DNA from: an uncultured Anaerolineae bacterium
GTDB taxonomy: Bacteria; Chloroflexota; Anaerolineae; Fen-1058
Direction of reading: 5' to 3'
Length of the DNA: 64,000 nt
NCBI GenBank assembly: GCA_964398185.1
Contig: CAYNML010000003.1
Span: 16,303-80,302, forward strand
In this document: in pieces, positions 8,843 through 40,396 of the stretch
Layout: each line of letters starts with the position of its first letter
Numbering within the stretch: position 1 is the stretch's first letter
The notes under the pieces: generated by a model
Told to the model about the DNA's origin: nothing
The model's database searches: none
What the model saw: the letters and a program-made list of their open reading frames with translations, nothing else
Made by a program: the position numbers and the translations under genes

Positions 8843-9796
8843 ATGCTGGATCTCGCCATCATCATCGTCAACTACAACGTCTGCGATCTGCTCCGCGAGT
8901 GCCTCACGTCCGTCTATGCCAGCACCGGCCTTGCCTTCGCGGTATGCGTCGTCGATAACGCTTCGCCCGATGACAGCGCCGCCATGGTGGCGCGCGAATT
9001 TCCGCAGGCGCACCTCATCCGCAACACGGAGAATATGGGCTACGCGGCAGCGAACAACCTGGGACTGCGCTATTTTGGATTTACCGATCGGGGATCAGAG
9101 ATCTGGTCTCAGGGATCGGACGCTGGCGATCAACCCCACATCCAACATCCGACCTCTAACATCCCCCGCTATGCGCTGCTCTTGAATCCTGATACAGTGG
9201 TGCCGCCCGACGCTTTGGCGCGAATGATCCAGCTCATGGACGATCATCCGGACTTTGGCGTGAGCGGCCCCAAGCTGGTGCGCCGCGACGGCTCGCTCGA
9301 TCTGGCCTGCCGGCGCGGCTTCCCCTCCGTGGAAGTCTCCTTTTGGCGTTTGACGAAATTGAGTAAAATATTCCCCCGCAGCCGGCGCTTCGGACGTTAC
9401 AACATGACCTACCTCGATCCCGATCAACCCGCGGAGATCGATTCCGTGGTGGGCGCATTCATGCTCGTACGGCGCGAGGCAATTGCGCAAGCGGGCCTGC
9501 TGGATGAGATCTTCTGGATGTATGGTGAAGACCTCGATTGGGCGTACCGCATCAAGCAGCGCGGCTGGAAAGTGTACTATTACCCGGCGGTCGTCGTCAC
9601 GCACGTCAAGCGCGCGTCCAGCAGCCAGGACAATGCGGGCGCGGCCAAAGCGCAGTACGAATTCGATCGCGCCATGTGGCTGTTCTATCGCAAGCACTAT
9701 CAGGCCAGCACGCCGCGTCTGGTCGATTGGCTGGTGAAGTTCGGACTGGGCTTGAAGGGCGGCGCGCCGCTGAAAGCTGAGATGAAGCAGAAGTAA
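8843..9796 (+). CDS. glycosyltransferase family 2
   Basis: GT-A fold motifs (IIVNYNVCDLL, VVDNASPDD, NMGYAAANNLG). Confidence 0.8.
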   Translation: MLDLAIIIVNYNVCDLLRECLTSVYASTGLAFAVCVVDNASPDDSAAMVAREFPQAHLIRNTENMGYAAANNLGLRYFGFTDRGSEIWSQGSDAGDQPHIQHPTSNIPRYALLLNPDTVVPPDALARMIQLMDDHPDFGVSGPKLVRRDGSLDLACRRGFPSVEVSFWRLTKLSKIFPRSRRFGRYNMTYLDPDQPAEIDSVVGAFMLVRREAIAQAGLLDEIFWMYGEDLDWAYRIKQRGWKVYYYPAVVVTHVKRASSSQDNAGAAKAQYEFDRAMWLFYRKHYQASTPRLVDWLVKFGLGLKGGAPLKAEMKQK

Positions 9797-23483: not shown

Positions 23484-23485
23484 GT

Positions 23486-23560: not shown

Positions 23561-23569
23561 AGTGGAGGG

Positions 23570-24793: not shown

Positions 24794-24890
24794 TGCGATA
24801 GTGCGGCAGTCTTGTAGTCAGGTAGTCGAAGCCCCGTCGGCTGGAGAAGTCGGCGGGGCCTTATTATGCTGGCCGGTCATTCCCGCGCGC

Positions 24891-27800
24891 TTATGGCCTG
24901 ATGGCTTCCGTGAGAACCACGCGCTGCTGCGCGGCATCGATCGCGTGTGTGCCGCTGACGGGCAGGCGGCCGGCGGGCTCATACAACCCGATCGCGATGC
25001 GGTATTCACCCGGCGGCACATTCGCCAGCGGAATGAGCAACGTCTCGGTGATCACTTCGTTCGCGATCCAGCGCGAGGTGGGATAGGCGTTGTGGCGCGG
25101 CATGGCGTCCCACTGCGCGACGATGGTCTCGGTGGCCGGATCAAAGATGTGCGCGAAGACTTTGTAGTTGCGGGTGATATCGCGCCGCGCCTGCCACGCC
25201 AGATCGATCTGCAGCGTATCGCCCTCGCGTTTCAGATCGTAACCCAGCAATTGAATCTGATCCCCGAAGACCGCATCGAGCGGCTGAGACATGGTCGGTG
25301 CGTTGAAGTTGCGGGCGGGCGGCTCGATGGCGCGCCACGCGTGCGGATCAAGATGAATGCCGTCGATGGTCGTGCGGCCCACTTCTGCTTGCGAGGCGAC
25401 ACGATAGAGGATCACGTCGAGCGCATAGACTTGATCGCGCGGGAGATCGGCGGGCAGATCGAGTGTGTATGCGTCGTTAAGCGTGCCCGGCTGCCACGCG
25501 CTGGTCGGCTGAAAGCCATAGCCGGGCTGCGTATCGAGTGAAGTCCAGACTTTGCCAGAAGAATCGTGCAGCCGCAGCGAGATGCCGTAGTTCGCATCTG
25601 TCACACCAGAGATCGCCCACTGCAGCAGCACGTCGAGACGATCCAGATCATGCAGTTGCGTTTGCACTGCCGCGAGTCCGATGTTGGGCGTGAGCGATCC
25701 GAATTGGGGTGAGGTGGGCTCGTCGGAATGCTTGATCCAGATCGGCGCGAGGAACTGAGTATCATCGCCTACTTGCACCGACACGTAGTACATGCCGGTG
25801 GGTAAGGCGTAGGGCACATGTAATGTCACTCTGTTCTGCCCGTTCTGTACAGGCGTAACCGTCTGTGTGATCGGACTCGGCCCGCCGAACAGATGCGTGG
25901 ACGGTGCAACGAGCGAGACGGTGGCGCTTACCTCCGCCGACGAAGCAATGCTCCACTCCATGTCTACTTCTACGCTGCCCGTATCTGGCGCAAAGCGTGC
26001 CTCAGACTTCATCAGACTGATGTCGTCACGAAAAGCATAACCGCCCGGATTGTGATGCAGCCACGGCTTGCTGACGAAGTCCATCGTTAGGTCGCGCGCC
26101 TCAGCGGACACCGCATAAACGTGCTGTGCCACGGCGATGAAGAGACCGTATCCAAAAACGATCAACGCGGCCCACCACACATTGCGAGACGGAATCAAAT
26201 GGCGCAGATCAACATCCAGACCGTTCGTGTCACGATAAAAGCGAATCAACAAGAAGACGGTAAGTACCGCCAGTGTGATGAGCGAGACAGCTTCGCCAAC
26301 GGTGCGGAGGAGCGTATTACTCAACCACACGTCGAGACGGTCTCCGCCGTTCCGGGTTACATCCACTTGTACATAGCCCAGATCGGGCGCGGCGCGAGCG
26401 GGTATGTCCGCGCCATTTTGATAAGCCCGCCAGATCGGCCAGTAAATGATCGGCAAATTAAGGGTGGCCGTTTCCGATTGAGTGCGCACGCTCCACGTTT
26501 GCCAAGTGGCGCCCCATTGAGACTGCATGGAATCTACAGAGCCAGCAGAAACGATCGGGCGGAGAAGAATCGCCGTTGGATCGATCAACAGCGGCCCGGT
26601 GTGCGGTCGCGGGATCAGCGTGCGCGGCAGATACTCGGCGCGGATCGTTGTGCCGATGTTGCCGGTGAACGCTTCGTACAGCTGCAACCGTTGGGGCGTG
26701 ATCTCATCCGATCGGATGGGCAAGTAATCGGGGCGCAGGGTGAACAGCATTGACGCGACGAGGATCAATCCAACCGGCACAGCCACACGCGCCGGACGCG
26801 TGACAACCAGCGCTAGATACCCAATCGTCAACGAGGTGAACAACGCCTGAATCGACAGGAAGCGCCACGGGAATTGTGTGTACGATAGCAGCGGCAGCGT
26901 GTCCCACAACGGTTTGGACAACGGCGTGATCATGAACGTGGACAACGCCAGCCCGATCAGCACGAAGAGGCGGAACGAACTTGAATCCGTTTTAACGGAT
27001 TTGTCTTGAGCAGCGACCGAATTCATTCGGTCGCGTTTCCACGTCACGATCAAGGCAATGAGGCCCGCCACTGTCCCGATCGCTTGCACCAGCCCCATCG
27101 CAAACGGCGAATTCGATCCGGGCGCGGTCGTAATCGCGTAGTCGAAGCCGATCGAGTTTTGGATCAGGTTCGCCGCCCGGAAGTGTTCGGCATAGTTGAA
27201 GTAGCCCGTCGTCTGCACAGCGCCGACTTGCGTCAGGCTCGCTTCGCCCAAAGCAGGCAGCCAGAAGAACGCGGACAGCGCGAAGGCAAGCAGAAGTCCA
27301 GCGCCAATGCCAAGGATGGTGCGCCCCACTGGGAAGCTTGGCACTGTTACGTGTTGCGTATTGCGTATTAACCACGCACCACGCACTACGCCATACGTGA
27401 TGACGAACGGCGAGAAGATCAGCGCCGAGATGTTGTGCGTGAGAATCAAGCCGCCGTAAGACAGCGCCAGCAGCGGCCAATTGCGGGCGGAATCAAAGAT
27501 GCGATCGATCGACCACAAGATGAGCGGATAGAAGATGAACGCGTAGAACTCGCTCAGCGAATCGCCGCGCACGTAGACGTTGACCAGGTGAAATGGCGCA
27601 TAGAGGTAAGCGACCGCCGCCAGCCACGCCGCCCAACGAGTAGTGAAATGCCGCCGTGCCCAGCCGTACAGCGCGAAGCCCGCGCACACGAAGCCCAGCG
27701 TCTGCACGATCTTGATCGAGGTGAGCAGATCGAAGCCGAGGAAGTTGAAAATCGCCGCAAAGTAATACGGCAGCGCAGCATAGAAGTTAAAAAAGGGATA

Positions 27801-28058
27801 GCCCAGGCCGTAAGCCGCGTCAGGCATCCACCGCATGGGGAAAACGCCCTCGCGCAGGTTCGCCATCAATTGATGCAAGCGGAAAAACAAGAAGGGACTA
27901 TCGCCGCCGCCGCGCGTATTGACGAGTCCCGGCCCGGTCCACAACGGCAGCGCGGCCAGCAGCGCCGCAAGCAAAAGCGTCAGACCGATCCAGGGGATCG
28001 ATCTGACGCTTGCGCGAAAACCCGATTGAGGTTGTACGGCAGAAGCGGCGTTGGTCAC
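24891..28058 (-). CDS. large polytopic membrane protein, PTPS-related/YfhO-like putative GT-C glycosyltransferase with a C-terminal soluble domain
   Basis: N-terminal motif GGGDSPFLFFRLHQLMANLREGVFPMRWMPDAAYGLGYPFFNFYAALPYY typical of 6-pyruvoyl-tetrahydropterin-synthase-related membrane proteins. More than 12 TM segments. C-terminal domain (QLLGYD...FAHIFD...GEYRIAIGLYE) shared with both GT39 proteins. GTG start. Confidence 0.65.
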   Translation of the reverse strand: MTNAASAVQPQSGFRASVRSIPWIGLTLLLAALLAALPLWTGPGLVNTRGGGDSPFLFFRLHQLMANLREGVFPMRWMPDAAYGLGYPFFNFYAALPYYFAAIFNFLGFDLLTSIKIVQTLGFVCAGFALYGWARRHFTTRWAAWLAAVAYLYAPFHLVNVYVRGDSLSEFYAFIFYPLILWSIDRIFDSARNWPLLALSYGGLILTHNISALIFSPFVITYGVVRGAWLIRNTQHVTVPSFPVGRTILGIGAGLLLAFALSAFFWLPALGEASLTQVGAVQTTGYFNYAEHFRAANLIQNSIGFDYAITTAPGSNSPFAMGLVQAIGTVAGLIALIVTWKRDRMNSVAAQDKSVKTDSSSFRLFVLIGLALSTFMITPLSKPLWDTLPLLSYTQFPWRFLSIQALFTSLTIGYLALVVTRPARVAVPVGLILVASMLFTLRPDYLPIRSDEITPQRLQLYEAFTGNIGTTIRAEYLPRTLIPRPHTGPLLIDPTAILLRPIVSAGSVDSMQSQWGATWQTWSVRTQSETATLNLPIIYWPIWRAYQNGADIPARAAPDLGYVQVDVTRNGGDRLDVWLSNTLLRTVGEAVSLITLAVLTVFLLIRFYRDTNGLDVDLRHLIPSRNVWWAALIVFGYGLFIAVAQHVYAVSAEARDLTMDFVSKPWLHHNPGGYAFRDDISLMKSEARFAPDTGSVEVDMEWSIASSAEVSATVSLVAPSTHLFGGPSPITQTVTPVQNGQNRVTLHVPYALPTGMYYVSVQVGDDTQFLAPIWIKHSDEPTSPQFGSLTPNIGLAAVQTQLHDLDRLDVLLQWAISGVTDANYGISLRLHDSSGKVWTSLDTQPGYGFQPTSAWQPGTLNDAYTLDLPADLPRDQVYALDVILYRVASQAEVGRTTIDGIHLDPHAWRAIEPPARNFNAPTMSQPLDAVFGDQIQLLGYDLKREGDTLQIDLAWQARRDITRNYKVFAHIFDPATETIVAQWDAMPRHNAYPTSRWIANEVITETLLIPLANVPPGEYRIAIGLYEPAGRLPVSGTHAIDAAQQRVVLTEAIRP

Positions 28059-28143
28059 GCTGAGCCTCTACTGCGAAACCGAGTCTCTCCAGCGCCGATC
28101 GGTGTACGCGGCAGTCCGCAGAAACCCGGTTTTACACGGTGCT

Positions 28144-28701
28144 TTACGCGCTGCGCGCGCGGCGCAGAATGCTGTACGCCAGGAAACCGGCTGCGCCCAG
28201 CACGCCGATACCCAGCACGCCCAGCGCGATGCGCCCGATGGTCGACATGCCGCCCGTGCTGCCAGCGGTCGCCTGATTGTTCTCCGGTTGCGCGCCCAGA
28301 TTCACGCCGTAATTGATCTCGTACTGTGCGCCGCTGGCCAACGGCACAGCCCACTGCCCTGAAGTCGTCACCTGGCCCTTGACCTTGTTCACATCGGGTC
28401 GGGCTTGCACGGTGTACTGGCCCACCGCCAGATTCCCAAAGCAGTAGGCTTGATCAACTTCCGTGCCGTCGGTGCGATAGCTGGCCAGCCGGCCTGTTTC
28501 ATTGGACAGGATGAACGTGACATTGGCCAACAGCGGTTCATCGGGTGGCGTGTAGGTGCCGTCGCCATTAACATCGTTAAAAGCGCGCACGCAGATTTCG
28601 CCCACGCCTTGCGGCCATGGCGCGGCGGCCTGCGCGGCCGGCAAGCCTGCCAGCAAGGATGTGGCGACAACCAGCAAACTGATCCAGCGTATGAAGCGCA
28701 T
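28144..28701 (-). CDS. secreted SdrD-B-like (Cna-B-type) domain protein with a C-terminal TM anchor
   Basis: signal peptide; ICVRAFNDVNGDGTYTPPDEPLLANVTF...YCFGNLAVGQYTV; C-terminal Gly-rich TM + RRARSA. Confidence 0.6.
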   Translation of the reverse strand: MRFIRWISLLVVATSLLAGLPAAQAAAPWPQGVGEICVRAFNDVNGDGTYTPPDEPLLANVTFILSNETGRLASYRTDGTEVDQAYCFGNLAVGQYTVQARPDVNKVKGQVTTSGQWAVPLASGAQYEINYGVNLGAQPENNQATAGSTGGMSTIGRIALGVLGIGVLGAAGFLAYSILRRARSA

Positions 28702-28725
28702 GATGCGGTTCCTCTCTGCCTGAAG

Positions 28726-30276
28726 TTAGGCGCGCCGGCGCGCGATGACGAAGGCGCCGATGACGCCCGCCGCCAGCAGCAGCACCAATCCGCCGATGCC
28801 GGCCAGAATGCCGCCGATGTTCGATCCTCCGCCCGACGAGCTGCTGGATGATTCGCTGCCGCTGGTCGTGGTGGTGGCGCCTTCACCCGAGCGGCTGCCG
28901 AAGTCGATGCTGACCCTGGCGCCGGCTGACAGGGGCACACTCCACCGCTCGTCCGAGGTGGCCGTGGTATTGGGCGCGGGCTGCACGGCAATGCTGTAGC
29001 TGCCCGGCTTCAAATCACTCAGGCAGTGGGCGTCTGCGGCGTCGGTGGACACGTGCTCGGTCACCGTGGCGCCATCACCATCGATTACGGTGAACGTGGC
29101 GCCAGCGACTGGCCCTTCACCGGGATCGCGCAGCGCATCGGCGTTGACATCTTCATAGGCAAACAGGCACAATGTGGCCAGATTTGACGCGGCTGCTACC
29201 TCTGTCGCCGCTGCCGTCGGGGGCACGGCGGGTTCCGTCTGTGGCGTCGCAGCGACCGGCGCTTGCGGCGTTTCTGCCGACGGCTGTGCGGGGGCCGAGG
29301 TGGCGGTGGGCTGCGGCGCAGCCGTGGGCTGCGGGGCAGTGGAACCCGCGCCGCCTTTGATGATGATCTTCTGCCCGATCGAGAGAATTGACTGCGCGTT
29401 CAAGCCGTTCAACGCGTAGATGGTATCCAACGGCACATTGTATTGGAACGACAGTCCAAACAACGTGTCGCCGGCCACGACCGTATGCACGATGGCGCCG
29501 GTCGCATCGGGTTGTACCGCGGGCTGCGGCGGCGTGGTGGCCTGCGGTTGCGGCTGTGGCTGCGCGGCTGTGGTTGGCTGCGCCGTAGGCTGCGCGCCCA
29601 GAATCACCAGCTCAGCCTGATCCCACCACGCATCCAGGTGGATGGCGCCGGAACCGCGCCAGTCGTTGCGCGTGAACACCACTACCTTGCCAGCGGCCCC
29701 CACGGTGCCTTCCGTGCACAGCTGCCCCCAGGTATCATGTGGATTCCCCGCAGCCGACCACTTGATGTTGGGATTGTCCCAGTTGGCATCCCCCTCCAGA
29801 AAAATACCGACTTGCGAACGGCCATTCATGGCAGTAACTGACGGGTCGCCTTTGCCGTAGTCCCTGTTCTGGGCGTACAGGCGCGAGTGGGCGCAGAAGC
29901 GGACTTGCGACCCGGCCGGGATGCCGCCGACCGCCTGCGACCAACCCCCAATCCACGGGTCATACTGGCGGCCAATATGGGCCGAAGCATCGCCCTCCAG
30001 AACCAGCTCCGGGTACGCTCCAGAAGGATTGGTCTCGGCGCTGAAATCGGGGTTCAGCGCGTACTGCAATTCTGAAGCATTGTTCGGTTTCTCAATGATC
30101 TGGAACCAGCGGCCCCAACCGGTGGGCTGTTTGTTGCTGTCCGTGTAGGGCAGGTTCATGCCCGGATTTTGCAGCAGGTTGCCAGACTGAGCTTGCAAGA
30201 CAGCCGGTGCGACGGCCAGCGCCGCAGCGATCAGCGCCAGCACACTGCCCCAGATGATCAACTTCTTGATGTTCAT
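28726..30276 (-). CDS. surface protein: signal peptide, CBM4/9-like domain, LysM, PT/PQ linker, SdrD-B-like domain, C-terminal TM anchor
   Basis: NLLQNPGMN... start of a CBM_4_9-like beta-sandwich; LysM (IVHTVVAGDTLFGLSFQYNVPLDTIYALNGL); LCLFAYEDVNADALRD...; C-terminal ...ARRRA. Confidence 0.65.
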   Translation of the reverse strand: MNIKKLIIWGSVLALIAAALAVAPAVLQAQSGNLLQNPGMNLPYTDSNKQPTGWGRWFQIIEKPNNASELQYALNPDFSAETNPSGAYPELVLEGDASAHIGRQYDPWIGGWSQAVGGIPAGSQVRFCAHSRLYAQNRDYGKGDPSVTAMNGRSQVGIFLEGDANWDNPNIKWSAAGNPHDTWGQLCTEGTVGAAGKVVVFTRNDWRGSGAIHLDAWWDQAELVILGAQPTAQPTTAAQPQPQPQATTPPQPAVQPDATGAIVHTVVAGDTLFGLSFQYNVPLDTIYALNGLNAQSILSIGQKIIIKGGAGSTAPQPTAAPQPTATSAPAQPSAETPQAPVAATPQTEPAVPPTAAATEVAAASNLATLCLFAYEDVNADALRDPGEGPVAGATFTVIDGDGATVTEHVSTDAADAHCLSDLKPGSYSIAVQPAPNTTATSDERWSVPLSAGARVSIDFGSRSGEGATTTTSGSESSSSSSGGGSNIGGILAGIGGLVLLLAAGVIGAFVIARRRA

Positions 30277-30375
30277 GGTGTTACTTCTCCTTTGGATGTT
30301 AGCCGCAATTATAAACCATTTTGCGCGTGCGTCCGGGGTGGAACCACGGCGGGAAATGACGGGGTGATTGACAGG

Positions 30376-31923
30376 CTACAGCCAGGCATAGCGCCGGCGG
30401 CGGCGCAGCCAGATGACCAGGCCGATCAGCCCGGCGGCGCCCACCAACAGCCCGATCAAGAGTGCCACGTCCTCGATCGGGAAACGGTTCAACGCGGCCC
30501 GATCGATCTGCACACCAAGCGGCACGGCGACGATGGCATCGCTGGGCAGCGAGATGGACCAGCGCAGCTGTTGGGTTGCCACATAACCGATCGGGAGACT
30601 GATCAGCATCCGATAGGTGGTGGCGGGCAAGCCGGTGAAGCACGTCTCATGGCTGGCTGCCTCCAGCTGCGCATCAGCCACCACTTCATCCTGCGCATTC
30701 ACTACCTGCACCTGCAGCCCGGCTACTGGCAGCGGCGTTTCACCGGCCAGGAACAGCCCGTTGGCGTCGCTGTCGGCAAACGTGCGCAGGCAAATCGAGC
30801 CCCGCCCGGATCCGGTGCTGCCGCCGGTCGTCACAAAGGGATTGCCCGTCGATGGCTGAGCGGGGACCTGCGGCTTGGCCTCTGGCAAGGCGATGATCAA
30901 CTCGCGGCCCAACTCAATGCGCGAATCGGGCTTCAAGCCGTTCAGTGCCATGATCTGATCGACCGGCACCCCGTATTGCAGCGCCAGCGCGAACAGCGTG
31001 TCACCCGGCTTGACGATGTGTACAATGCGGCCGCCGTTGCTGGCCGTCGACTTGCTCTCAACTGCCACCATGGCCGGAGCCGGGTTCACAGTCACCGGCG
31101 CGCTGAAGCCGCCGCCCAGCGCAACCAGCTCGGCGTCGTCCAGATACATATCGTTGTGCTGCATGGGATTCTCGGGACGGGAGTAGGTGAACACGGTGAC
31201 CTTATTGGAACGCGCCACGGCCTGCACCTCGTACCGCTCGAACTTGTCGTAGACATCCTTCTCCGCCGACCAGACAACGTCCTTGCTCCACGGATCCGTG
31301 CCCCCCGTCGGATCGATGCCGATCTTCATGTGCATGCCGGTCTGGCCGAAGGAGAAATGCGGATTGGGCTGCAATCCATGCAGCTTGGTGGCCGACCAGG
31401 CGTGCATGTAAATGCTGAAGCGCAGCGCCATGCCGGGGCGCACATTCTCCACCACCTGGTAGACGCCGCCTTCGTGCACGCTCCAGAAGGTGAAGTACTT
31501 TTGCGAGTTCTCGCCGCTGCGGATGCGCGGCGGATCTTGCAGACTGCCGCGGGTGTCCCGGTATTCCGGCATATGCCACGCGACACAACCGTCCGGCGCT
31601 TTAGGGCTGCAGTAGTTGGGGTAAGTCTGATAATAATCCGGGGAGCTGGCATCCTCGTTGGGCGGCTGCCACCACGCCGACCACCCGTCGGCCATCATAA
31701 CGCTTTGCCACGGGCGCGACGGCAGCGGTCCATCACACGGTACGGCAATCCACGGCTTGCCGCCGGGAAAGCTGCAGCGTACTTTGTAGTCGCCTTCAAA
31801 GCCGGGGTTTTCCAGCAAGTTTCCGGACTGGGCATGGAGGCGGGTCAGCGGCAGCCACGCTGCCCCCAGGGCGATGATCAACCCTGCGATTAAGATTTTC
31901 GCCAGCGCCTGCTGCTTCATCAT
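30376..31923 (-). CDS. surface protein paralog: CBM4/9-like, LysM, SdrD-B-like, TM anchor
   Basis: same architecture (NLLENPGFEG; IVHIVKPGDTLFALALQYGVPVDQIMALNGL; ICLRTFADSDANG; ...WLRRRRRYAWL). Start at the MMKQQ signal peptide (31923), not the ORF start at 32145. Confidence 0.65.
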   Translation of the reverse strand: MMKQQALAKILIAGLIIALGAAWLPLTRLHAQSGNLLENPGFEGDYKVRCSFPGGKPWIAVPCDGPLPSRPWQSVMMADGWSAWWQPPNEDASSPDYYQTYPNYCSPKAPDGCVAWHMPEYRDTRGSLQDPPRIRSGENSQKYFTFWSVHEGGVYQVVENVRPGMALRFSIYMHAWSATKLHGLQPNPHFSFGQTGMHMKIGIDPTGGTDPWSKDVVWSAEKDVYDKFERYEVQAVARSNKVTVFTYSRPENPMQHNDMYLDDAELVALGGGFSAPVTVNPAPAMVAVESKSTASNGGRIVHIVKPGDTLFALALQYGVPVDQIMALNGLKPDSRIELGRELIIALPEAKPQVPAQPSTGNPFVTTGGSTGSGRGSICLRTFADSDANGLFLAGETPLPVAGLQVQVVNAQDEVVADAQLEAASHETCFTGLPATTYRMLISLPIGYVATQQLRWSISLPSDAIVAVPLGVQIDRAALNRFPIEDVALLIGLLVGAAGLIGLVIWLRRRRRYAWL

Positions 31924-31958
31924 TTGCCGTTCTCTGATACTTGATCCCCGCACCTTGA

Positions 31959-34268
31959 TCAACCGATCCCGGCATTTCCCCGCCGCTGCCGATAGATCAA
32001 CACACCGATACCGCCCGCGACCAAAGCGGCCAGCGCCAGCCCGATTGCGCCTTCGCCGCCCGACGCAGGTACTGCTTCCTGCCCGCTGATCCGGCTGCCA
32101 AAATTCACCGATGCAGTGGTGCCCTGCCCCAGGATCACGCTCCAACGCTGATCAGAAGTAGGTTCCGTGCCCGGCGCCGGTTCCACCGCCACCAGATACT
32201 CCCCAGGCGTCAGGCTTGTAAAGCAATGCGGCTCGCTCAGCCCGTCGGAATTGTATGACACGATCGGTTGGCCGGATCGTTCGGAAATCTGGAACAGGGT
32301 GTCTTTCACCAGCTCTTCGCTGCGCCCCAGCACGCCATCTGCGTTGACATCGTTAAAGGCGCGCACGCAGATCTGCGTTTTGCCGGTCGGCTCCATCAGC
32401 GCCACGGCCGTGGCCGGCAACGAGGTGGCCGTGGGTACGGGCGCTGACGCGTTCTCTTGCGGCGCGGGCGTGGCGGTCACGGCCGGCGCCGCTGCGATGA
32501 CCAGCTCTTGCCCCACGCGAATGAGCGAGTCCTTGGTCAGGCCGTTCAACCGCAAAATCTCGTCCATCGCCACGTTATATTGCAGCGCCAGACCGAAGAC
32601 CGTATCGCCCGCCTTGACGACGTGTACGATCGCTCCATTGGGACGCGGCAGCGCGGTGGGCGCGGGACCGGCATTGACGACTGAGGCCGGTTGTTGCCCT
32701 GCCGGCTGAGCGACAACCGGTTGCGCCGGCGCCGGCTGCACGACACCGGACGCATCGATGATCACCAGCTCGGCGTCGTCCACGTACACATCATTGTGCT
32801 TCTTCGCCAGCTGCGGCATGCTGTGCGTAAAGACCGTTACCTTGTCGCACTGCGCTGTGGCCCGCACCTCGTAATATCCAAACTCATCGTAGGAGTCATG
32901 CTCTGGACTCCAGACGACGTTGGGGCTCCACGGATCTTCGCCGCCGCACGGATCGATGCCGACCTTCATGTGCATGTTGGTTTGTCCCGACGACAGGAAC
33001 GTCGCGGGATCATCGTCGCGCATGTCCTGATTGGACGACCACGCGTGCATCCACGCGCTGAAGCGCAAGACGCTGCCCGCGGGCACCGCCACGGTCTGCA
33101 TCACGCCCGCCTGGTGCACGCTCCAGAAAGTGAAATACTTCTGTGAATTTTTGCCGCTGTGAATGCGCGGCGGTCCGGACACCACGCCTTTGGTATCACG
33201 ATATTCCGGATTGTGCCACGCGACGCAGTTCTCCGGCGCATTGCTATAGCAGTTGTTGGGGTGATCAGAATAGAAATTTGGATCGCCGCTATTCGTGTTG
33301 GGCGGATACCACCACGCTTTCCAGCCGATCGGCACCTGCACCGTATCCCAGCGAATGTACTCACGTTTGCCGTCAACCTTGCGCAGGTCCAGACCTTCGC
33401 ACGAAATATGATTCCACGGCACATCATTGGCGCGGCTGCACGGAATGTACAATTGACCCTCAAAGCCGCCGTTCGTTAACAGGTTCTGACCCAGCGCCAC
33501 GCTGATGGGCGTGGGCGGCAGCGCTGTGGCGGGCAGCGGCGTGGCCGTGGGGTATGACGCCTGCGCGGTGGCCGCGGCATTGCCGCTCAACGCTTCCAGC
33601 GCCACATCGTCCCAGTACACCTCGTTTTTGCGGCGCGCATCATCCGGCGCGGCATACAAGAATACAGTGACTTGCGCACTCTGCGCGCGCGCATAGACGC
33701 TGAACTGCTGCCACGAATCCAGCGCGTCGGCTTCACCCGACCAGACGACGCGCGCATCGTAGGGATTGGTACCGCCCCACGGATCGAGGCCGATGCGCAA
33801 GTGCATCTGCGTGCCGCCGTTGGACACATTCTGCGGCTGCTCGGACTGCGACGACCAGCTCTGCCCAAAGGCCGTCAAGTGCAGATCGCTGCCGGGCGTC
33901 ACGGCCACCTGCTGATACACCCCGGCCACATACGTGCCGAAATATTGAAAAATGCGCTGCGCGTTGCCCCCGCTGTGAATGCGATGATCGCACACAGCGC
34001 CGCACGGCGCGCTGGCGATGAAGTCGGGATGATTGTAGGACCACTCGGGTGAACCGGCCGGTCGCGGAATCCACCAGGCGGTCCAGCCTTGTCCCACGCT
34101 GGTCTGGCCGTCTTGCGTCACGAAGGCTCCCTCAAAACCGGGGTTCGTGATCAAGTTGCCGGCCGGGCGCGGGGCCGCCAATCCTTGTGTCGCCTGCGTC
34201 TGCTGCGGCGCCAACGCCAACGCCGCCAGCGCCAACAGGCCCAACGCCATCCATCTTTTCCACGGCAT
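31959..34268 (-). CDS. surface protein paralog with two CBM4/9-like domains, LysM, SdrD-B-like, TM anchor
   Basis: NLITNPGFEG and NLLTNGGFEG modules; LysM IVHVVKAGDTVFGLALQYNVAMDEILRLNGL; ICVRAFNDVNADG; C-terminal TM + RQRRG. Confidence 0.65.
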   Translation of the reverse strand: MPWKRWMALGLLALAALALAPQQTQATQGLAAPRPAGNLITNPGFEGAFVTQDGQTSVGQGWTAWWIPRPAGSPEWSYNHPDFIASAPCGAVCDHRIHSGGNAQRIFQYFGTYVAGVYQQVAVTPGSDLHLTAFGQSWSSQSEQPQNVSNGGTQMHLRIGLDPWGGTNPYDARVVWSGEADALDSWQQFSVYARAQSAQVTVFLYAAPDDARRKNEVYWDDVALEALSGNAAATAQASYPTATPLPATALPPTPISVALGQNLLTNGGFEGQLYIPCSRANDVPWNHISCEGLDLRKVDGKREYIRWDTVQVPIGWKAWWYPPNTNSGDPNFYSDHPNNCYSNAPENCVAWHNPEYRDTKGVVSGPPRIHSGKNSQKYFTFWSVHQAGVMQTVAVPAGSVLRFSAWMHAWSSNQDMRDDDPATFLSSGQTNMHMKVGIDPCGGEDPWSPNVVWSPEHDSYDEFGYYEVRATAQCDKVTVFTHSMPQLAKKHNDVYVDDAELVIIDASGVVQPAPAQPVVAQPAGQQPASVVNAGPAPTALPRPNGAIVHVVKAGDTVFGLALQYNVAMDEILRLNGLTKDSLIRVGQELVIAAAPAVTATPAPQENASAPVPTATSLPATAVALMEPTGKTQICVRAFNDVNADGVLGRSEELVKDTLFQISERSGQPIVSYNSDGLSEPHCFTSLTPGEYLVAVEPAPGTEPTSDQRWSVILGQGTTASVNFGSRISGQEAVPASGGEGAIGLALAALVAGGIGVLIYRQRRGNAGIG

Positions 34269-34354
34269 ATTCTGCTTTGACTCCCCGAAATTTCCTGCTG
34301 CTCAAGTATACTCGATCGAACGTCATACCCCTAAATCTTCATGACCGTCGCTCA

Positions 34355-34397
34355 TCGACCGCGTCCGCGCGGTCGACTCACACCGCGCGGACGCGGT
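34355..34397 (-). terminator. nested GC-rich palindrome (TCGACCGCGTCCGCGCGGTCGA; ACCGCGTCCGCGCGGT vs ACCGCGCGGACGCGGT) downstream of the GT39 gene
   Basis: perfect 15-bp inverted repeat plus self-palindromic left arm; no U-tract. Confidence 0.45.
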
Positions 34398-34418
34398 GTG
34401 AGAGCGTTGCGGCAATGA

Positions 34419-36464
34419 TCACGGCCCGATCGCGCCCGGCCCTTCATCTGCGGCGCCGCCCAGCAAGAGCGCCTGCTCGATCACCGGCGGCGTCGCTTCG
34501 CTCACGTTCACGCGCTGGTTCGTGGCCCGATCGTATAACCCCAGCTCGATCAGCAGCTGCGCCCGATCGGCCTGGGGCGGCACATCGATGAGGCGTTCAT
34601 CGATGATCACATCGCCCGGCCGCCACAACCGCAGCGGAAAGAAACCGCCGCCGCTGTCACCGTCGGCCGTGCTCACCACTTGCTTCACGTTCAACAGGTG
34701 CACGAAGAAGGTCTGATCAGACGCGATCGGCCGATCGGTTTGCCACAGTGTGCGCAGCCGCCAGTGCGTCTCGTCCACGGCCTCGACCGAATGGCCCAGC
34801 AAGCGCAGACCGTTTTCGAACTGCGCTTCGGCTTGCAGCGGCGCGCCGTCGAGCGGCTCGGTGCGCACGACGAGGTATCCCGTGTGCGGCTGCGGATCGA
34901 GATCGCCTTTGGCCGGCGGCCCGGCCTCGACCTGCACGCGCACCGGCACGGTGAGCGACGACAACGCCTGCGACCAGTCAGTATAGGGCCACAGAAACAA
35001 CGTGGCAGACTGGGTCGCGTCGAGCTGCGGCGCCATCTCAGCGGGAATGGGGATGTATCCGCCGCCGATCAGAAACGGCACGCTGGCCCAGTCGCGCGCG
35101 AACCGATCGGCGACATAGATCTGGCGGCCTTCACGGCGATCAGTGCGCGCCTCACGCGCCAACTGGACTCCGGCGTCTTCAAACATGAACGCCGTGGCGG
35201 GATTGACGGCATACGCGCTGTAATCGCGGATGGTCCACGCGGCCCCGACGATCAACACCGCGATAACGACGCCGTAACTCAAAACACGCTGGCCCCGCAC
35301 CTTCAGCCACTGCGCCAGTGTTTCGAGACCGATGGCGGGCACGATCAGCGCCACGGGCAGCACACCCACGGCGCGCAAAAAGTGCGGCGCGTCTTCGGCC
35401 AGAATCGTGGGCAGCAGCATGATCGGGATCCAGATCAACACGAACAGACTGGCCAGCTTCGACAATGGCGGCAGGCGCGGTGCAAAGCGCAGGTCAGGGC
35501 CGGGGCGCAGAAAATCGGGCAGCGGCTTGTACGGCGGAGGCGTCGGCCCCAACGCCGCGATGATTAAGCGGATCAAGCCCCACGCGAAGAAGATCACCAG
35601 GATCGGATCGAACACCGGGCGATAGGGCACATTGTGGCGTGCGATGCCGTCGCCGCGCCAGAAGAACATGCCCACCGCGGCGGCCACGCTGCGCCCCAGC
35701 GAGCCGAGCGGGTCGCCGTGACTGATCGCGGGGTTGAAGATCGACACGTCGCCGGGGCGGCCCATCACCATCTCCCACTGCGTCAAGGCGGTGATGATCA
35801 GCGGCAGCGCCACGACCAGCGTCGTGATCGTAAAAATGATCAGATTGCGCCACGGCAAGGTTTTGCGCCGCGTGAAGAGCAGGATGATCAACATCACGAT
35901 CAATGCCAGCGGCGTGAAGCGGCTGGCGAGATAGGTGTAGAACGACAAGCCGTAAACGATACCTGCGCTGATCCAGTGCAGCACGCGGCCCGATCGATAC
36001 GCCTGCACGCCCAGGCCGATCGACAGCGCGATGAATAACGGCAATGTTCCGGCGCGGAAACCGATCAGACTGAGATGAATCGGCCACAAGGTGATTGTGG
36101 CAATTGCGGCTGTGAGCAGGCCCACGCGCCGCCCGAACAACTCGCGCGCCATGAAGTACGCGGCGGGAATCAGCAGCGTGCCGACGATGGCGGCGGGCAG
36201 ACGCACCGCATACACACTGCGCCCCAGCCAGCCGATGCTCCACGCCATGAAGTAAATGAACAGCGGCTCGCGCCCGTTGTTGGCCGCAAAATACAGCGGT
36301 CGATCGCCGCCCAGCACGCGCAGCGCATCGAGGCCGTAATAAGCTTCATCGTGATACAGACCCGGCGGCCACGCGCCCAATTCGTAGAAGCGCACTGCGC
36401 CGGCGATCAGCATCAGCGCCAGCACCGGCCACCATTCCAGAAAGATGTTGCGAAGTGTTCTCAT
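34419..36464 (-). CDS. glycosyltransferase family 39 (PMT/ArnT-like) membrane protein with a C-terminal soluble domain
   Basis: LYHDEAYYG first-loop DE motif, PLYFAANNGREPLFIYFMAW, more than 10 TM; C-terminal domain FVHLLNVKQ...LLIELGLYD shared with 698..2659 and 24891..28058. Start at ATG 36464 (MRTLRN); the ORF could extend to 36593. Confidence 0.75.
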   Translation of the reverse strand: MRTLRNIFLEWWPVLALMLIAGAVRFYELGAWPPGLYHDEAYYGLDALRVLGGDRPLYFAANNGREPLFIYFMAWSIGWLGRSVYAVRLPAAIVGTLLIPAAYFMARELFGRRVGLLTAAIATITLWPIHLSLIGFRAGTLPLFIALSIGLGVQAYRSGRVLHWISAGIVYGLSFYTYLASRFTPLALIVMLIILLFTRRKTLPWRNLIIFTITTLVVALPLIITALTQWEMVMGRPGDVSIFNPAISHGDPLGSLGRSVAAAVGMFFWRGDGIARHNVPYRPVFDPILVIFFAWGLIRLIIAALGPTPPPYKPLPDFLRPGPDLRFAPRLPPLSKLASLFVLIWIPIMLLPTILAEDAPHFLRAVGVLPVALIVPAIGLETLAQWLKVRGQRVLSYGVVIAVLIVGAAWTIRDYSAYAVNPATAFMFEDAGVQLAREARTDRREGRQIYVADRFARDWASVPFLIGGGYIPIPAEMAPQLDATQSATLFLWPYTDWSQALSSLTVPVRVQVEAGPPAKGDLDPQPHTGYLVVRTEPLDGAPLQAEAQFENGLRLLGHSVEAVDETHWRLRTLWQTDRPIASDQTFFVHLLNVKQVVSTADGDSGGGFFPLRLWRPGDVIIDERLIDVPPQADRAQLLIELGLYDRATNQRVNVSEATPPVIEQALLLGGAADEGPGAIGP

Positions 36465-36582: not shown

Positions 36583-37719
36583 ATGCTTTCCAAAGCGCTG
36601 GTGATCGGCGCTTATCACAGCAAGCTCAAGCACATCGCCGCGCAGCCCGACGTGCGGCTCACGGCCCTCGTACCGCCCAGCTGGCGCGACGAGCGCGGCG
36701 AGTTGAAACTGGAACGCACCACGGGCGATGGCTACGACTTGATCGTCACGCCGCTGCGCTTCAATGGCAACTTTCACCTGCACTATTATCCGCAGCTCGA
36801 TCGTTTGTTGCAGCAGCTCCAGCCCGACCTGGTGCACATCGACGAAGAACCCTACAATCTGGCGACGTTTCTCGCCCTGCGATCCGCGCGTCGTCTCGGC
36901 GCACGCGCAATCTTCTTCAGCTGGCAGAATTTGCGGCGATCGTACCCGCCGCCGTTTCGCTGGTTCGAGCACTACACCCTGCAACACGCTGCCGCCGGCA
37001 TCGTGGGCAATGCAGATGCGGAACAGGTGTGGCGCGTCAAAGGCTATCGCGGCCCGTTGACGGTGATTCCGCAAGTGGGCGTTGAGCCGGAGGTGTTGAA
37101 GCCTCTGGATCGAAACCGGGATTCTACGACTGAACCTTCTCGCCATTCAAATGGAAGAATCCCGGTTGCTACGTTTGTCGTCGGCTACGCGGGGCGCTTT
37201 GTTGAAGAGAAAGGAATTGATGTGCTGCTGCACGCGCTGCACGATCTCGATGGCAACTGGCAGGCTGAGCTGGTAGGCAGCGGTCCGGATCACACCCGAT
37301 TGGCTGAGCTGGCCCAACGGTTGCAGATCGCCGATCGGGTGCGGTTTCTGCCGTGGAGGCCCTCCGCGCAAATGGTCGACTATTATCGATCGCTGAACGT
37401 GCTGGTCCTGCCCTCGCGCAGTCGATCGAATTGGAAAGAGCAGTTCGGGCGCGTGCTGGTGGATGCCATGGCCTGCGGCGTCCCCGTCATCGGCTCCACG
37501 TGCGGCGAGATTCCCCACGTCATCGGCGACGCGGGGTTGATCTTCCCCGAAGGTGATACGACGGCCCTGCGCGATCAGCTGCGCAGATTGCAGAACGATG
37601 CCGCACTCTGCCGCGATCTCGCGCAGCGCGGACGCCAGCGCGTGCTGGAGCGCTTCACGCAGGAGCAGATTGCGCGGCAGACGGTTGCGGTATATCAAAA
37701 CGTAATGCGTACTGTGTAA
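36583..37719 (+). CDS. glycosyltransferase family 4 (GT-B, group 1)
   Basis: C-terminal GT4 motifs (VLPSRSRSNWKEQFGRVLVDAMACGVPVIGS); GGTGAGG SD; start at 36583 rather than 36445. Confidence 0.8.
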   Translation: MLSKALVIGAYHSKLKHIAAQPDVRLTALVPPSWRDERGELKLERTTGDGYDLIVTPLRFNGNFHLHYYPQLDRLLQQLQPDLVHIDEEPYNLATFLALRSARRLGARAIFFSWQNLRRSYPPPFRWFEHYTLQHAAAGIVGNADAEQVWRVKGYRGPLTVIPQVGVEPEVLKPLDRNRDSTTEPSRHSNGRIPVATFVVGYAGRFVEEKGIDVLLHALHDLDGNWQAELVGSGPDHTRLAELAQRLQIADRVRFLPWRPSAQMVDYYRSLNVLVLPSRSRSNWKEQFGRVLVDAMACGVPVIGSTCGEIPHVIGDAGLIFPEGDTTALRDQLRRLQNDAALCRDLAQRGRQRVLERFTQEQIARQTVAVYQNVMRTV

Positions 37720-37776: not shown

Positions 37777-38934
37777 ATGACTCAGTCAGCGCCACACGTT
37801 GCGATCAGCGCGCCCTTGCTGGCGCCAGTGGGCAGTTATCGCAGCGCAGGCATTCACACGTACATTCAACATTCGCTGCAACATCTGTCGGAGGCCGATC
37901 CGGATGTGCGCCTGACGTTGTTCACCGCACATCCACCGGCGGGACTGCCAAAAGCGATCGAGGTGCAGCGGCCGCGCTGGAACACCGATCGGCCTGCGTT
38001 ACGAATTTTGTGGGAGCAGTTGGCGCTGCCATCGGCGGTGCGGCGCGCTCAAGCCGCTGTCTTGCATGCCACGGCCTTCGTGGCCCCGATCGTTCAGACG
38101 CGCCCGACGGTCATCACGATCTACGACGTGAGCTTCGCGCTGTATCCGCAGCTCTTTCGCGGCTTCAATCAGACGTATTTGCGAGCGGGCACACGCTGGT
38201 CAGCGCCGCACGCACAGCGCCTCATCACGATCTCGGAGTGTGCGCGACGCGATGTGCACCGTTTGTACGGTGTGCCGCTCGATCGGATCACGGTGGCTTA
38301 TCCGGGCGTGGACGAAGCGCTGGGACCGGGTGATCCTGAGCGGGTTGAAGAATTTCGCCGCGCGAAAGATCTGCCGGAGAAGTTTGTGTTGTATCTGGGC
38401 ACGCTGGAACCGCGCAAGAATCTGGCAATGCTGGTGCGCGCGTTCGCGCAGCTGAAACGCGAATGCCCCGACGCGGTGCTGGTGCTGGCGGGCGGCCTCG
38501 GCTGGCTGGCGGATGACATCTTTGCGACCATTGAAGCGTGCGGTGTGCAAGACAGCGTGCGGCTGCCGGGCTTCGTGGCCGCAGAAGAGAAAGCGCTGTG
38601 GTATGCAGCGGCCACGGCGTTTGTGTTCCCGTCAATCTATGAAGGCTTTGGTATGCCGCCGCTGGAGGCGCTGGCCTGCGGCACGCCGGTGATTGCGTCG
38701 AATGCGGCGTCACTGCCGGAAGTGGTGGGCGAAGCCGGCCTGCTGCTCGCGCCCGATGACGTGCGCGGCTGGACGGCAGCGCTCAAGCGCGTCTGGATCG
38801 ATGCAGCCTATCGGGCTGAGTTGGCCGATCGGGGCGTGAGACAGGCGCAGCAATTCACGTGGCAAGCCACCTCCCGCCAGATCGCCCAAACCTATCGTGA
38901 CTTGATCATTGCTCACAAAGTCCCCGCAGCGTAG
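37777..38934 (+). CDS. glycosyltransferase family 4 (GT-B, group 1)
   Basis: EX7E-type C-terminal motif region (FVFPSIYEGFGMPPLEALACGTPVIAS). Confidence 0.8.
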   Translation: MTQSAPHVAISAPLLAPVGSYRSAGIHTYIQHSLQHLSEADPDVRLTLFTAHPPAGLPKAIEVQRPRWNTDRPALRILWEQLALPSAVRRAQAAVLHATAFVAPIVQTRPTVITIYDVSFALYPQLFRGFNQTYLRAGTRWSAPHAQRLITISECARRDVHRLYGVPLDRITVAYPGVDEALGPGDPERVEEFRRAKDLPEKFVLYLGTLEPRKNLAMLVRAFAQLKRECPDAVLVLAGGLGWLADDIFATIEACGVQDSVRLPGFVAAEEKALWYAAATAFVFPSIYEGFGMPPLEALACGTPVIASNAASLPEVVGEAGLLLAPDDVRGWTAALKRVWIDAAYRAELADRGVRQAQQFTWQATSRQIAQTYRDLIIAHKVPAA

Positions 38935-38971: not shown

Positions 38972-40396
38972 ATGTCTCGCTTTCCACGTTGGCTCATCCC
39001 GGCCGTGATACTCAGCGACATGGTGCTGATCAATGCCGCATTTCTGCTGGCCTATGAAGTCCGTTATCGCTGGCAGCTCTTCCGCCCGGTCGAGCCGGAG
39101 TTCGACAATCCCATCGATGTGTATTACCCGTTCATGCTGGTGCTGACGATCTTGTTGATCGCCGCGTACAAGATCGACAATGTCTATGTACCCCGGCGGC
39201 TGGGGATGTGGCTCGATCAGATGTCGCGCATCGTGCGCAGCACCATGATCGCCATGCTGATCATGATTGGCATCACCTTCATCTATCAGCCGTTCTTCTA
39301 TTCGCGGTTGATCTACCTGTACGCTACGATTTTGATCATCGCGCTGCTGGGGCTGGGACGGCTGCTGTGGGGCGTGGTGCTGGGCCAGCTGCGGGCGCGC
39401 GGCATTGGCGTATCGCGCGTGCTGATTGTGGGCGCAGGCGACGTGGGCCGCATGGTGATCCGCACCGTCATGGCGCAGCCGGAGTTCGGCTATCGCATCA
39501 TGGCGCTGGTGGATGATCATGTGGAGACGAGCGCGTTGTCGATCGGGCCGGTGCCAATGATCGAAGGGACACGGCGCCTGCCGCAGATCGTTGCGGAGAA
39601 GCACATCGACGAAGTGATCGTCACGCTGCCGTGGACGGACCACCAGCGCATCCTGGATATTTTTCAACTGTGCGAGAGTCTGGGCGTGCGGGCGCGCACC
39701 GTCCCCGATCTGTTCCAGCTGAGTTTGAACCGCGTGGATGTGGAGGACCTGGGCGGCGTGCCGGTGATTGGCTTGAAGCCGGCCTCGATTCGCGGCGCAA
39801 ACTTGATCGTGAAACGCATCATGGATGTGGTGCTGGGCAGCCTGATGCTGCTGATCGCTTCGCCGCTGATGATCATCTCGGCGCTGGCGATTAAGTTGGA
39901 TTCGCCAGGCCCGATCATCTTCCGGCAAAAGCGCGTGGGCGCGCGCGGCCAGGAGTTTGTGTTGTTTAAGTTCCGCTCCATGCGCGAAGGCGCGGACGAA
40001 GAGAAGGAACGGCTGCTGGATCTTAATGAAATGCAGGGGCCGTTGTTCAAGATGCGTTCGGATCCGCGCACCACGCGCGTGGGACGTTTCCTGCGCCGCT
40101 TGAGCCTGGATGAGCTGCCGCAGTTGTTCAACGTGCTGCGCGGCGAGATGAGTCTGGTGGGGCCGCGCCCGCACACCTCGGCGGAAGTGGCGCAGTATCA
40201 GAGCTGGCAGCGGCAGGTGCTGGAAGCGCCGCCCGGCTTGACGGGACTGGCGCAGGTGTCAGGTCGCAGCCAGTTGAGCTTCGACGAGCAGTGCCTGCTG
40301 GACATTTACTACATCGAGAATTGGTCGCCGGCACTGGACATCAAGATTCTGCTGCGCACGGTGCCGAAGGCGTTATCGGGTGAAGGGGCGTACTAA
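38972..40396 (+). CDS. polyprenyl-phosphate sugar phosphotransferase (WbaP/WcaJ-type), paralog of 9796..11208
   Basis: same conserved C-terminal catalytic motifs (FKFRSM, DELPQLFNVLRGEMSLVGPRP, GLTGLAQVSG); start at the ATG 38972 (MSRFPRW). Confidence 0.85.
   Translation: MSRFPRWLIPAVILSDMVLINAAFLLAYEVRYRWQLFRPVEPEFDNPIDVYYPFMLVLTILLIAAYKIDNVYVPRRLGMWLDQMSRIVRSTMIAMLIMIGITFIYQPFFYSRLIYLYATILIIALLGLGRLLWGVVLGQLRARGIGVSRVLIVGAGDVGRMVIRTVMAQPEFGYRIMALVDDHVETSALSIGPVPMIEGTRRLPQIVAEKHIDEVIVTLPWTDHQRILDIFQLCESLGVRARTVPDLFQLSLNRVDVEDLGGVPVIGLKPASIRGANLIVKRIMDVVLGSLMLLIASPLMIISALAIKLDSPGPIIFRQKRVGARGQEFVLFKFRSMREGADEEKERLLDLNEMQGPLFKMRSDPRTTRVGRFLRRLSLDELPQLFNVLRGEMSLVGPRPHTSAEVAQYQSWQRQVLEAPPGLTGLAQVSGRSQLSFDEQCLLDIYYIENWSPALDIKILLRTVPKALSGEGAY

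Follow-up and report, generated by a model that had tools for sequence, protein, structure and literature searches.

A candidate envelope-glycosylation module of Chloroflexota: GT-C membrane glycosyltransferases with a shared C-terminal beta-sandwich domain bracket surface-protein genes

Introduction

On what do membrane glycosyltransferases act when their genes bracket genes for surface proteins with long threonine- and proline-rich linkers? The question is raised by 64,000 nucleotides of DNA from an uncultured Anaerolineae bacterium (phylum Chloroflexota; NCBI GenBank assembly GCA_964398185.1, contig CAYNML010000003.1, positions 16,303 to 80,302), the whole of which is called the window below. 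Its G+C content is about 60%, and the best matches of its proteins are in metagenome-assembled Anaerolineae and Thermoflexales (Chloroflexota). The window encodes three membrane glycosyltransferases of the GT-C type, here called A, B and C, each ending in a soluble region. Much of the surface of bacteria is the work of GT-C enzymes, and we know of no acceptor for most bacterial members of the Pfam family PMT_2 or for any member of the family PTPS_related. Chloroflexota are abundant in wastewater, sediments and hot springs.

A preliminary description of the window, made by reading its sequence, had proposed that the three enzymes form a protein O-glycosylation system. The analysis described here shows that A, B and C share a homologous, widespread and unnamed immunoglobulin (Ig)-like domain that is fused to GT-C enzymes, and that two such enzymes bracket surface proteins with threonine/proline (Thr/Pro) linkers in a conserved module of the Chloroflexota. 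The best single reading, to which we give a probability of about 0.4, is that the region is a conserved envelope-glycosylation module whose GT-C enzymes O-glycosylate the linkers of the co-encoded surface proteins.

Three GT-C enzymes share a C-terminal beta-sandwich

The three open reading frames that the preliminary description had listed are all present (Table 1), and products identical to B and C occur in independent gene calls on metagenome contigs. Its division into two PMT_2-type proteins and one PTPS_related GT-C protein is borne out by Pfam: A (67 bits) and C (41.9 bits) pass the model for PMT_2 (PF13231; cut-off 26.1 bits), and B (40.4 bits) passes that for PTPS_related (PF10131; cut-off 26.4 bits). 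Two families are thus represented, as had been said of the three scaffolds, but A and C are paralogues over their full length (30% identity, BLASTP E 6e-70), so that there are two scaffolds and not three independent cases. Homologues of B number 1873 at E<=1e-10, and those with a source name come from Anaerolineae, Thermoflexales or other Chloroflexota.

An AlphaFold model of C (predicted local distance difference test score [pLDDT] 90, predicted template modelling score 0.87) has three parts: a GT-C membrane domain, then an alpha/beta domain and, at the C-terminal end, a beta-sandwich. In an alignment of 56 homologues, residues D39 and E40, the DE motif of the first outer loop of C, are invariant. 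The GT-C fold of C is supported by the model, by Foldseek matches (see below) and by this motif; for B, membership is that of the Pfam clan only, in which PTPS_related is a family of no known function (PMC7801869). Kyte-Doolittle analysis gives 9-10 membrane segments, a count that does not settle the topology, and the tail domain is placed outside the membrane because the enzymes have the GT-C fold.

In BLASTP with a pairwise search space the C-terminal region of B aligns significantly with that of A (E 7e-8) and with that of C (E 2e-9), and a hidden Markov model (HMM) made from 383 domain copies of unrelated homologues finds the domain on all three enzymes with independent E-values (i-E) of 1e-24 to 1e-36. 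Homology of the shared domain, as first proposed, is therefore well founded. A and C carry one copy each; B has two clear copies plus a doubtful third, and its homologues commonly have 3-4. The core motifs quoted for the domain (LGYD, W..G(D/E) and YR.x.G.Y among them) are broadly right and fit A and B well, although B has W..NE in place of W..G(D/E); C fits them in part only, with LGHS for LGYD and LLIELGLY for YR.x.G.Y. A search of the six-frame translation with the HMM found the domain in no other open reading frame of the window.

The domain is about 125 residues long and is an Ig-like beta-sandwich in AlphaFold models of full-length C and of B residues 778-1055 (pLDDT 90-92), the latter tail forming two such sandwiches (pLDDT 92). 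Pfam has no family for it, giving only weak cross-matches to MalQ_N, DUF4832, Wzt_C and the ML domain, and NCBIfam has no model. Nor did the PDB, searched by sequence with a profile of the domain, a full-length profile, A and B, yield any meaningful solved relative. An exhaustive profile search of cluster representatives (50% identity) finds the domain in 31,112 clusters at E<=1e-3 and in 21,765 at E<=1e-10; a word-indexed profile search returned almost only short fragments and close relatives. The best-scoring representatives are proteins of about 1000 residues with three tandem copies, and two to four tandem copies are usual within an overall range of 1-4.

Other genomes confirm that the domain occurs on more than one GT-C scaffold family. 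Among 47 top-scoring homologues the scaffold matches are PMT_2 (38), PMT (14), TMEM260-like (7), DUF2079 (2) and STT3 (2), and B and its homologues add PTPS_related. To follow the history of these fusions, 408 domain copies were compared across 83 loci. A last copy has its nearest relative on the same type of scaffold in 53 of 60 cases on PTPS_related and in 53 of 64 on GT39-type scaffolds, and at the same copy position in 59 of the 60 and 61 of the 64. Nearest relatives thus mostly share scaffold and copy position, arguing that the fusions and the tandem duplications are old. This pattern does not support the earlier suggestion that the module was appended independently; as the scaffolds are all members of a single clan, they may descend from a common ancestor in which the domain was already present.

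The most conserved feature of the domain, found in every copy across homologues, is a loop with the motif D-x-x-P-x(3-4)-[YF]-P-T-S-x-W-x-x-G-E. This loop bears on the explanation that the domain is only a structural spacer or oligomerization module and that the gene order described below reflects co-regulation of envelope genes, with no direct enzyme-substrate or enzyme-partner relation. Two observations are in keeping with that explanation: in fold searches the two-copy tail of B retrieves nothing beyond generic tandem Ig-like proteins (transglutaminase barrels, RbmA, Ig domains of GH2), and the copy number varies from 1 to 4. The loop is nevertheless conserved in both copies across homologues more strongly than a spacer would need, and the gene order is maintained in different orders of the phylum, down to enzymes about 41% identical. 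A purely structural role thus seems improbable.

A conserved order of enzyme and surface-protein genes

Between B and C lie four genes on the minus strand, and the six genes together form a run on one strand with gaps of 25-151 nucleotides. The four encoded surface proteins are mutually paralogous. The larger three run from a signal peptide and an N-terminal domain through a P/T/Q-rich linker, LysM, a second linker and the SdrD_B-like Ig domain to a C-terminal membrane anchor with a basic tail, the 185-residue member having only the Ig domain and the anchor; its SdrD_B score (27.1 bits, E 5e-6) falls just under the Pfam cut-off of 29.7 bits. The N-terminal domain of the larger proteins opens with NLLxNPGFEG and matches no Pfam family even at E<=10, apart from a weak cross-match (E 0.026) to the jelly-roll-type MAM domain. 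LysM is a wall-glycan-binding domain. In several species it has been lost from the middle gene while the N-terminal and SdrD_B-like domains are kept, and in such LysM-less homologues the folded domains are joined by long, near-perfect linker repeats, for example (PTNTPV)n and (PTPTDT)n. Thr/Pro-rich linkers are present in every homologue of the surface proteins that was inspected.

The arrangement recurs in other genomes. Five homologues of C, at 64, 56, 44, 41 and 43% identity, all have a LysM surface-protein gene directly downstream, and in four of the five loci this is followed by a PTPS_related gene. In the two most distant of these loci the full order is GT4, then PMT_2, surface protein and PTPS_related, then priming transferase and GT2. 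A larger sample came from an alignment scan with the tail of B, which at one genome per species gave 78 loci, all but a few of them named Chloroflexota; these and the loci from the C-homologue look-ups (L004-L008), drawn from species genomes and metagenome contigs, were mapped with local HMMs. The choice of query biases the sample towards PTPS_related-type genes and towards Chloroflexota.

Forty-two PTPS_related-plus-domain genes were testable, in that each was preceded by at least 2.5 kb of upstream sequence. For 18 of them a PMT_2-plus-domain gene, 1-4 surface-protein genes and the PTPS_related-plus-domain gene follow one another in that order, and 2-3 more have the surface-protein gene, with the arrangement interrupted by a contig end or a frameshift. 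Seven have no recognizable upstream gene. The three-part order persists to the 41% identity mentioned above, and genes for a WcaJ-like priming transferase, GT4 and GT2 often stand alongside it. Two domain-bearing GT-C enzymes that bracket Thr/Pro-linker surface proteins are thus a conserved module of the Chloroflexota, and its recurrence in many species speaks for the enzymes and the bracketed proteins being functionally linked.

For B and C, then, the linkage of GT-C genes to Thr/Pro-linker surface proteins that the preliminary description had put forward holds well. It extended the flanking relation too far, however: A lies 22 kb away, and the S51-peptidase-like and TadE-like proteins that had been counted among the flanked PT-linker proteins are 5-9 kb off and outside the conserved order. 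The protein with TPT repeats is this TadE-like protein, of 695 residues, encoded in a run of Flp-pilus-type pseudopilin genes (Table 1). The S51 gene and the ABC transporter genes that follow it converge on B and are retained beside it only in very close relatives (L001, L002), not at more distant loci. A strong hairpin between the convergent HlyD-like gene and B is likely to be a two-way terminator. Promoter and terminator scans over the operon gave results no better than shuffled sequence, terminator-like sites being no commoner than in shuffles.

Relationships of the enzymes

The preliminary description called A and C GT39 enzymes and equated these with protein O-mannosyltransferases (PMTs), an equation that the comparisons do not support. 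The PMT model (PF02366; cut-off 22.7 bits) is matched by A at 30.9 bits and not by C. No PMT_4TMC match occurs in A, B or C at E<=0.1, and no Pfam match to MIR was seen in the enzymes. Neither A nor C therefore combines PF02366 with PMT_4TMC as a true PMT does. A also gives a sub-threshold match to STT3 (21.6 versus 24.5 bits). The NCBIfam equivalog for ArnT, PRK13279, has a cut-off of 567 bits, against which A scores 29.2 bits and C gives no match; NCBIfam makes no family-level assignment for A, B or C.

In structure searches the model of C is matched by Foldseek with probability 1.0 to ArnT, STT3, AglB, PglB, ALG9/12, Pmt and Emb. Of all solved structures ArnT comes closest (E 8e-9 in an alignment of about 630 columns, about 14% identity), followed by the oligosaccharyltransferases and ALG9/12 and later by Pmt4 and Pmt1/2 (E 4e-5 to 6e-4), all at 12-18% identity; at the level of sequence, the enzymes match no solved GT-C protein. 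A grouping with ArnT rather than with PMTs had been named beforehand as evidence against PMT function. It is seen in part: ArnT is closer in structure, and no sequence-level match to either was found. A and C are members of the broad PMT_2 family that seem to be neither true PMTs nor true ArnTs. B falls short of the YfhO model (PF09586) with 21.7 bits against a cut-off of 28.5, and a precomputed YfhO match is present in many of its homologues.

Like C, ArnT (GT83, the lipid A aminoarabinose transferase) is a single chain with a C-terminal outer soluble domain; it differs in the low identity, in the NCBIfam score and in lacking the extra beta-sandwich. Being the top structural match, ArnT raises the question of whether a membrane lipid or lipid-anchored polymer is glycosylated instead of a protein, in an ArnT-like reaction on a glycolipid or a YfhO-like reaction on a polymer of the lipoteichoic acid type, with the sandwich binding the lipid or polymer. 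The weak YfhO match of B would fit such a role, YfhO being an enzyme that glycosylates lipoteichoic acid (PMC5836110). Four of the 47 homologues match the ML domain weakly (best E 3e-5), and there are local matches to Unc119 (E 1e-2). These point the same way, as ML and Unc119 are both lipid-binding beta-sandwiches; matches of this strength are, however, typical of any Ig-like sandwich, and a lipid-binding reading of the domain was set aside as too weakly based on them. The equivalog score of A (29 versus 567 bits) and the sub-threshold score of B also argue against a lipid acceptor, and the conserved surface-protein gene would be left unexplained. The host phylum is not known to make lipid A, and Chloroflexota are generally thought to lack lipopolysaccharide. 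We regard lipid or teichoic-type acceptors as unlikely and rank them, like the purely structural role, below protein and polysaccharide acceptors.

Other glycosylation genes of the module

Two GT4 genes and a gene for a WcaJ-like priming enzyme lie divergent from C on the opposite strand, and a soluble GT2 with a second priming enzyme is encoded near A (Table 1). These genes also recur: in L005, L007, L008, L034, L042, L060 and L066 the C-type gene has a divergent GT4 gene upstream, and a GT2 and WcaJ-like pair directly adjoins the PTPS_related gene in L007 and L008. Neither a polymerase nor a chain-length regulator was recognized in the window, no GtrA family match was found in the window or its conserved neighbours, and no Wzy_C/PglL-type gene was seen. 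The set of a priming transferase with GT4 and GT2 enzymes, lacking a recognizable polymerase or chain-length regulator, resembles protein-glycosylation loci. Of the parts of a Pgl-like locus, the priming enzyme and GT4/GT2 are present, no flippase was found, and the STT3 match of A is sub-threshold.

The GT2 gene of the window (8843..9796) was considered as a GtrB-type donor synthase and rejected, as its product has no membrane helices and matches rhamnosyltransferase and exopolysaccharide-type models. With this soluble enzyme as the sole GT2 and no GtrA/GtcA flippase, a three-component system of the Gtr type is not represented.

Protein linkers or polysaccharide as acceptor

All characterized GT-C enzymes known to us use polyprenyl-phosphate-linked donors and act outside the membrane, and by their fold the enzymes described here would do the same. 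In the proposed mechanism they would O-glycosylate threonine and serine residues in the linkers of the co-encoded surface proteins, with the beta-sandwich domains as putative acceptor-holding modules. An extended linker, or its first sugars, would be held at the active site in such a way that many repeated sites could be modified. A, the paralogue of C, would work elsewhere.

Linker O-glycosylation is preferred because it accounts for both the exact position and the variable number of the surface-protein genes, and because the Thr/Pro repeats persist where LysM has been lost. Loci have anywhere from 1 to 4 surface-protein genes but a single copy of each of the two enzymes, as expected if these proteins are clients of the enzymes. 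A DE motif in the first loop is a feature of protein O-mannosyltransferases. In a broader version of the model, which we put forward tentatively, protein O-glycosylation would be phylum-wide in the Chloroflexota, with PMT_2-type and PTPS_related-type enzymes modifying mucin-like linkers of their cognate proteins through a new Ig-like family of acceptor-holding domains.

Several observations weigh against protein acceptors. Thr/Pro linkers are common in secreted proteins, glycosylated or not. For eight of the 42 testable PTPS_related genes the two enzymes are directly adjacent, with no surface-protein gene between them, and no polyprenyl-phosphate-sugar synthase or flippase was recognized in the window. 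The closest solved fold, as noted, is ArnT, and among the relatives of B those of the YfhO type act on teichoic acids instead of proteins (PMC5836110). The C-terminal beta-sandwich modules known on other GT-C enzymes, namely the carbohydrate-binding modules of EmbA/B/C, AftD and the GT136 enzyme ORF12, bind polysaccharide acceptors (PMC11127046). Lastly, at many loci 3-7 domain-bearing GT-C paralogues stand head to tail in arrays that have no surface-protein gene; divergent members of these arrays are likewise mostly PMT_2 proteins, and the arrays look like a polysaccharide assembly line. The arrays at L022, L031, L048, L065, L077, L081 and L086 are a lineage-specific expansion reminiscent of the Emb/Aft clusters of mycobacteria.

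The precedents for carbohydrate-binding modules, a Wzt-like structural similarity of the domain and the multi-paralogue arrays make polysaccharide synthesis the main rival to linker O-glycosylation. The module would then assemble or decorate a cell-wall, sheath or secondary polysaccharide outside the cytoplasm: the priming transferase, GT2 and GT4 would make a lipid-linked primer, which the GT-C enzymes would extend or branch on the outside as the Emb and Aft enzymes do for arabinan. The beta-sandwiches would be carbohydrate-binding modules that retain the growing glycan, and the LysM and jelly-roll proteins would be glycan-binding scaffolds or anchors instead of substrates. LysM on the surface proteins and the MAM cross-match of their N-terminal domain agree with such a role, and both priming enzymes pass the WcaJ model, which is of the exopolysaccharide type. 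However, the conserved module comprises no gene for Wzx, Wzy, chain-length control or export, and a surface-protein gene of varying copy number precisely between the enzymes is not readily explained. Many homologues also do without LysM, but every one inspected has Thr/Pro linkers, often very long ones. We regard polysaccharide acceptors as only somewhat less probable than protein linkers.

Relation to known systems

The design in which a GT-C enzyme ends in an acceptor-binding sandwich is not new. In mycobacterial EmbA/B/C and AftD and in Citrobacter youngae ORF12 (GT136), a multi-pass GT-C domain is followed by one or more outer soluble domains rich in beta-strands, and several such enzymes are often encoded together (PMC11127046). 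The enzymes of the window conform to this design, with a beta-sandwich after the last membrane helix. They differ in that the domain, which usually occurs as 2-4 tandem copies, is of a separate and unnamed family, and in that their genes bracket surface-protein genes. The domain family, its size and the enzyme/surface-protein/enzyme order appear to be undescribed: no earlier description of the domain or the gene order was found in the literature searched, the coverage of which was incomplete.

With the PMTs (fungal Pmt1/2/4 and actinobacterial Pmt), TMTC and TMEM260, the enzymes share the GT-C fold and the DE motif in the first outer loop. In those proteins an accessory soluble domain, MIR or TPR, is thought to engage the acceptor, whereas an Ig-like sandwich takes its place here; TMEM260-like scaffolds also bear the present domain. 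PMTs prefer stretches rich in serine and threonine (PMC12705809). Unlike PMTs, the enzymes of the window are well fitted by the generic PMT_2 model only, lack PMT_4TMC and MIR matches, and have a fold nearer to ArnT. A further likeness is to the glycosylation of teichoic acids by YfhO, GtrB and GtcA (PMC5836110, PMC8035078), as B falls in the PTPS_related/YfhO branch of GT-C proteins (PMC7801869). Unlike that system, B scores below the YfhO threshold, has no GtrB-type synthase or GtrA/GtcA flippase gene nearby, and carries a 400-residue tail of tandem sandwiches.

The three-part order provides a testable hypothesis about substrate or partner for two large orphan GT-C families in a poorly studied phylum. 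Definition of the domain family would improve the annotation of tens of thousands of proteins and mark the GT-C enzymes that share a mode of acceptor recognition. If the acceptors are proteins, PMT-like O-glycosylation would be extended beyond the Actinobacteria; if they are polysaccharides, an extracytoplasmic assembly line like that of the Emb and Aft enzymes would exist in Chloroflexota. Should protein O-glycosylation prove phylum-wide, it would provide the first acceptor class for PTPS_related (PF10131), and the domain would be among the larger unnamed families (more than 30,000 clusters).

Features of the window

Table 1. Features of the 64-kb window and of the compared loci
Feature	Residues	Coordinates	Strand	Details
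Enzyme A		698..2659	+	GT-C, 653 aa; PMT_2-type transmembrane scaffold and C-terminal soluble region
Beta-sandwich of A	525-652	2270..2653	+	Domain HMM i-E 1e-33
Enzyme B		24891..28058	-	GT-C, 1055 aa; PTPS_related/YfhO-like scaffold and 400-aa soluble tail
Last beta-sandwich copy of B	930-1052	24903..25271	-	HMM i-E 1e-36; modelled beta-sandwich, pLDDT 92
Second beta-sandwich copy of B	786-906	25341..25703	-	HMM i-E 2e-20; fold as in last copy (model)
Possible degenerate third copy of B	683-773	25740..26012	-	Doubtful, HMM i-E 0.01
Enzyme C		34419..36464	-	GT-C, 681 aa; PMT_2-type scaffold, then alpha/beta domain, then beta-sandwich
Beta-sandwich of C	548-672	34449..34823	-	Domain HMM i-E 1e-24; modelled strands at 547-669
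Short surface protein, 185 aa		28144..28701	-	Signal peptide, SdrD_B-like Ig domain, C-terminal transmembrane anchor
Surface protein, 516 aa		28726..30276	-	Signal peptide, N-terminal domain, P/Q/T-rich linker, LysM, P/T/A-rich linker, SdrD_B-like domain, S/T-rich stretch, transmembrane anchor and basic tail
Surface protein, 515 aa		30376..31923	-	Architecture as 516-aa protein; start from independent gene call
Surface protein, about 765 aa		31959..34268	-	Two N-terminal domains, LysM, SdrD_B-like domain, transmembrane anchor
GT4 glycosyltransferase		36583..37719	+	Divergent from C; Pfam Glycos_transf_1 113 bits
Second GT4 glycosyltransferase		37828..38934	+	Family scan and independent gene call
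WcaJ-like polyprenyl-phosphate hexose-1-phosphate transferase (priming enzyme)		39020..40396	+	NCBIfam WcaJ_sugtrans 416 versus cut-off 410.75 bits
Soluble GT2 (317 aa) and second WcaJ-like priming transferase (470 aa)		8843..11208	+	Near A
Loci with three-part order				L005-L010, L012, L033, L034, L036, L038, L040, L042, L052, L055, L060, L062, L066
Long-repeat LysM-less homologues		L034:6038-7513, L038:6076-7470, L052:6280-7449
S51-peptidase-like protein and transporter genes		17798-24793		732-aa protein, then ABC ATPase, MacB-type permease, HlyD-type adaptor
Hairpin		24831-24859		12 bp, G+C-rich
Pseudopilin-type gene run		45830-50407	-	TadE-like, Tad/VWA, TadE-like
B12-binding radical SAM protein		3373-4860	-	With DUF4070
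Heat-shock operon		11332-17283	+	Complete, hrcA-grpE-dnaK-dnaJ-prmA
Bacterial alpha-2-macroglobulin		52446-58571	+	2041 aa; Big_5, MG2, bait-region, thioester (TED) and MG10 domains
Possible toxin-antitoxin pair		59295-60009	-

Across its 64 kb the window yielded neither a tRNA gene nor a match to any Rfam family. The window also holds the radical SAM, heat-shock and alpha-2-macroglobulin genes listed in Table 1. Near its end, two adjoining and slightly overlapping small genes resemble, as read from their translations, a HEPN/MNT toxin-antitoxin pair: one product, of 110 residues, has a nucleotidyltransferase-type GSxxRGD...DxD motif, and the other, of 131 residues, has a HEPN-like look.

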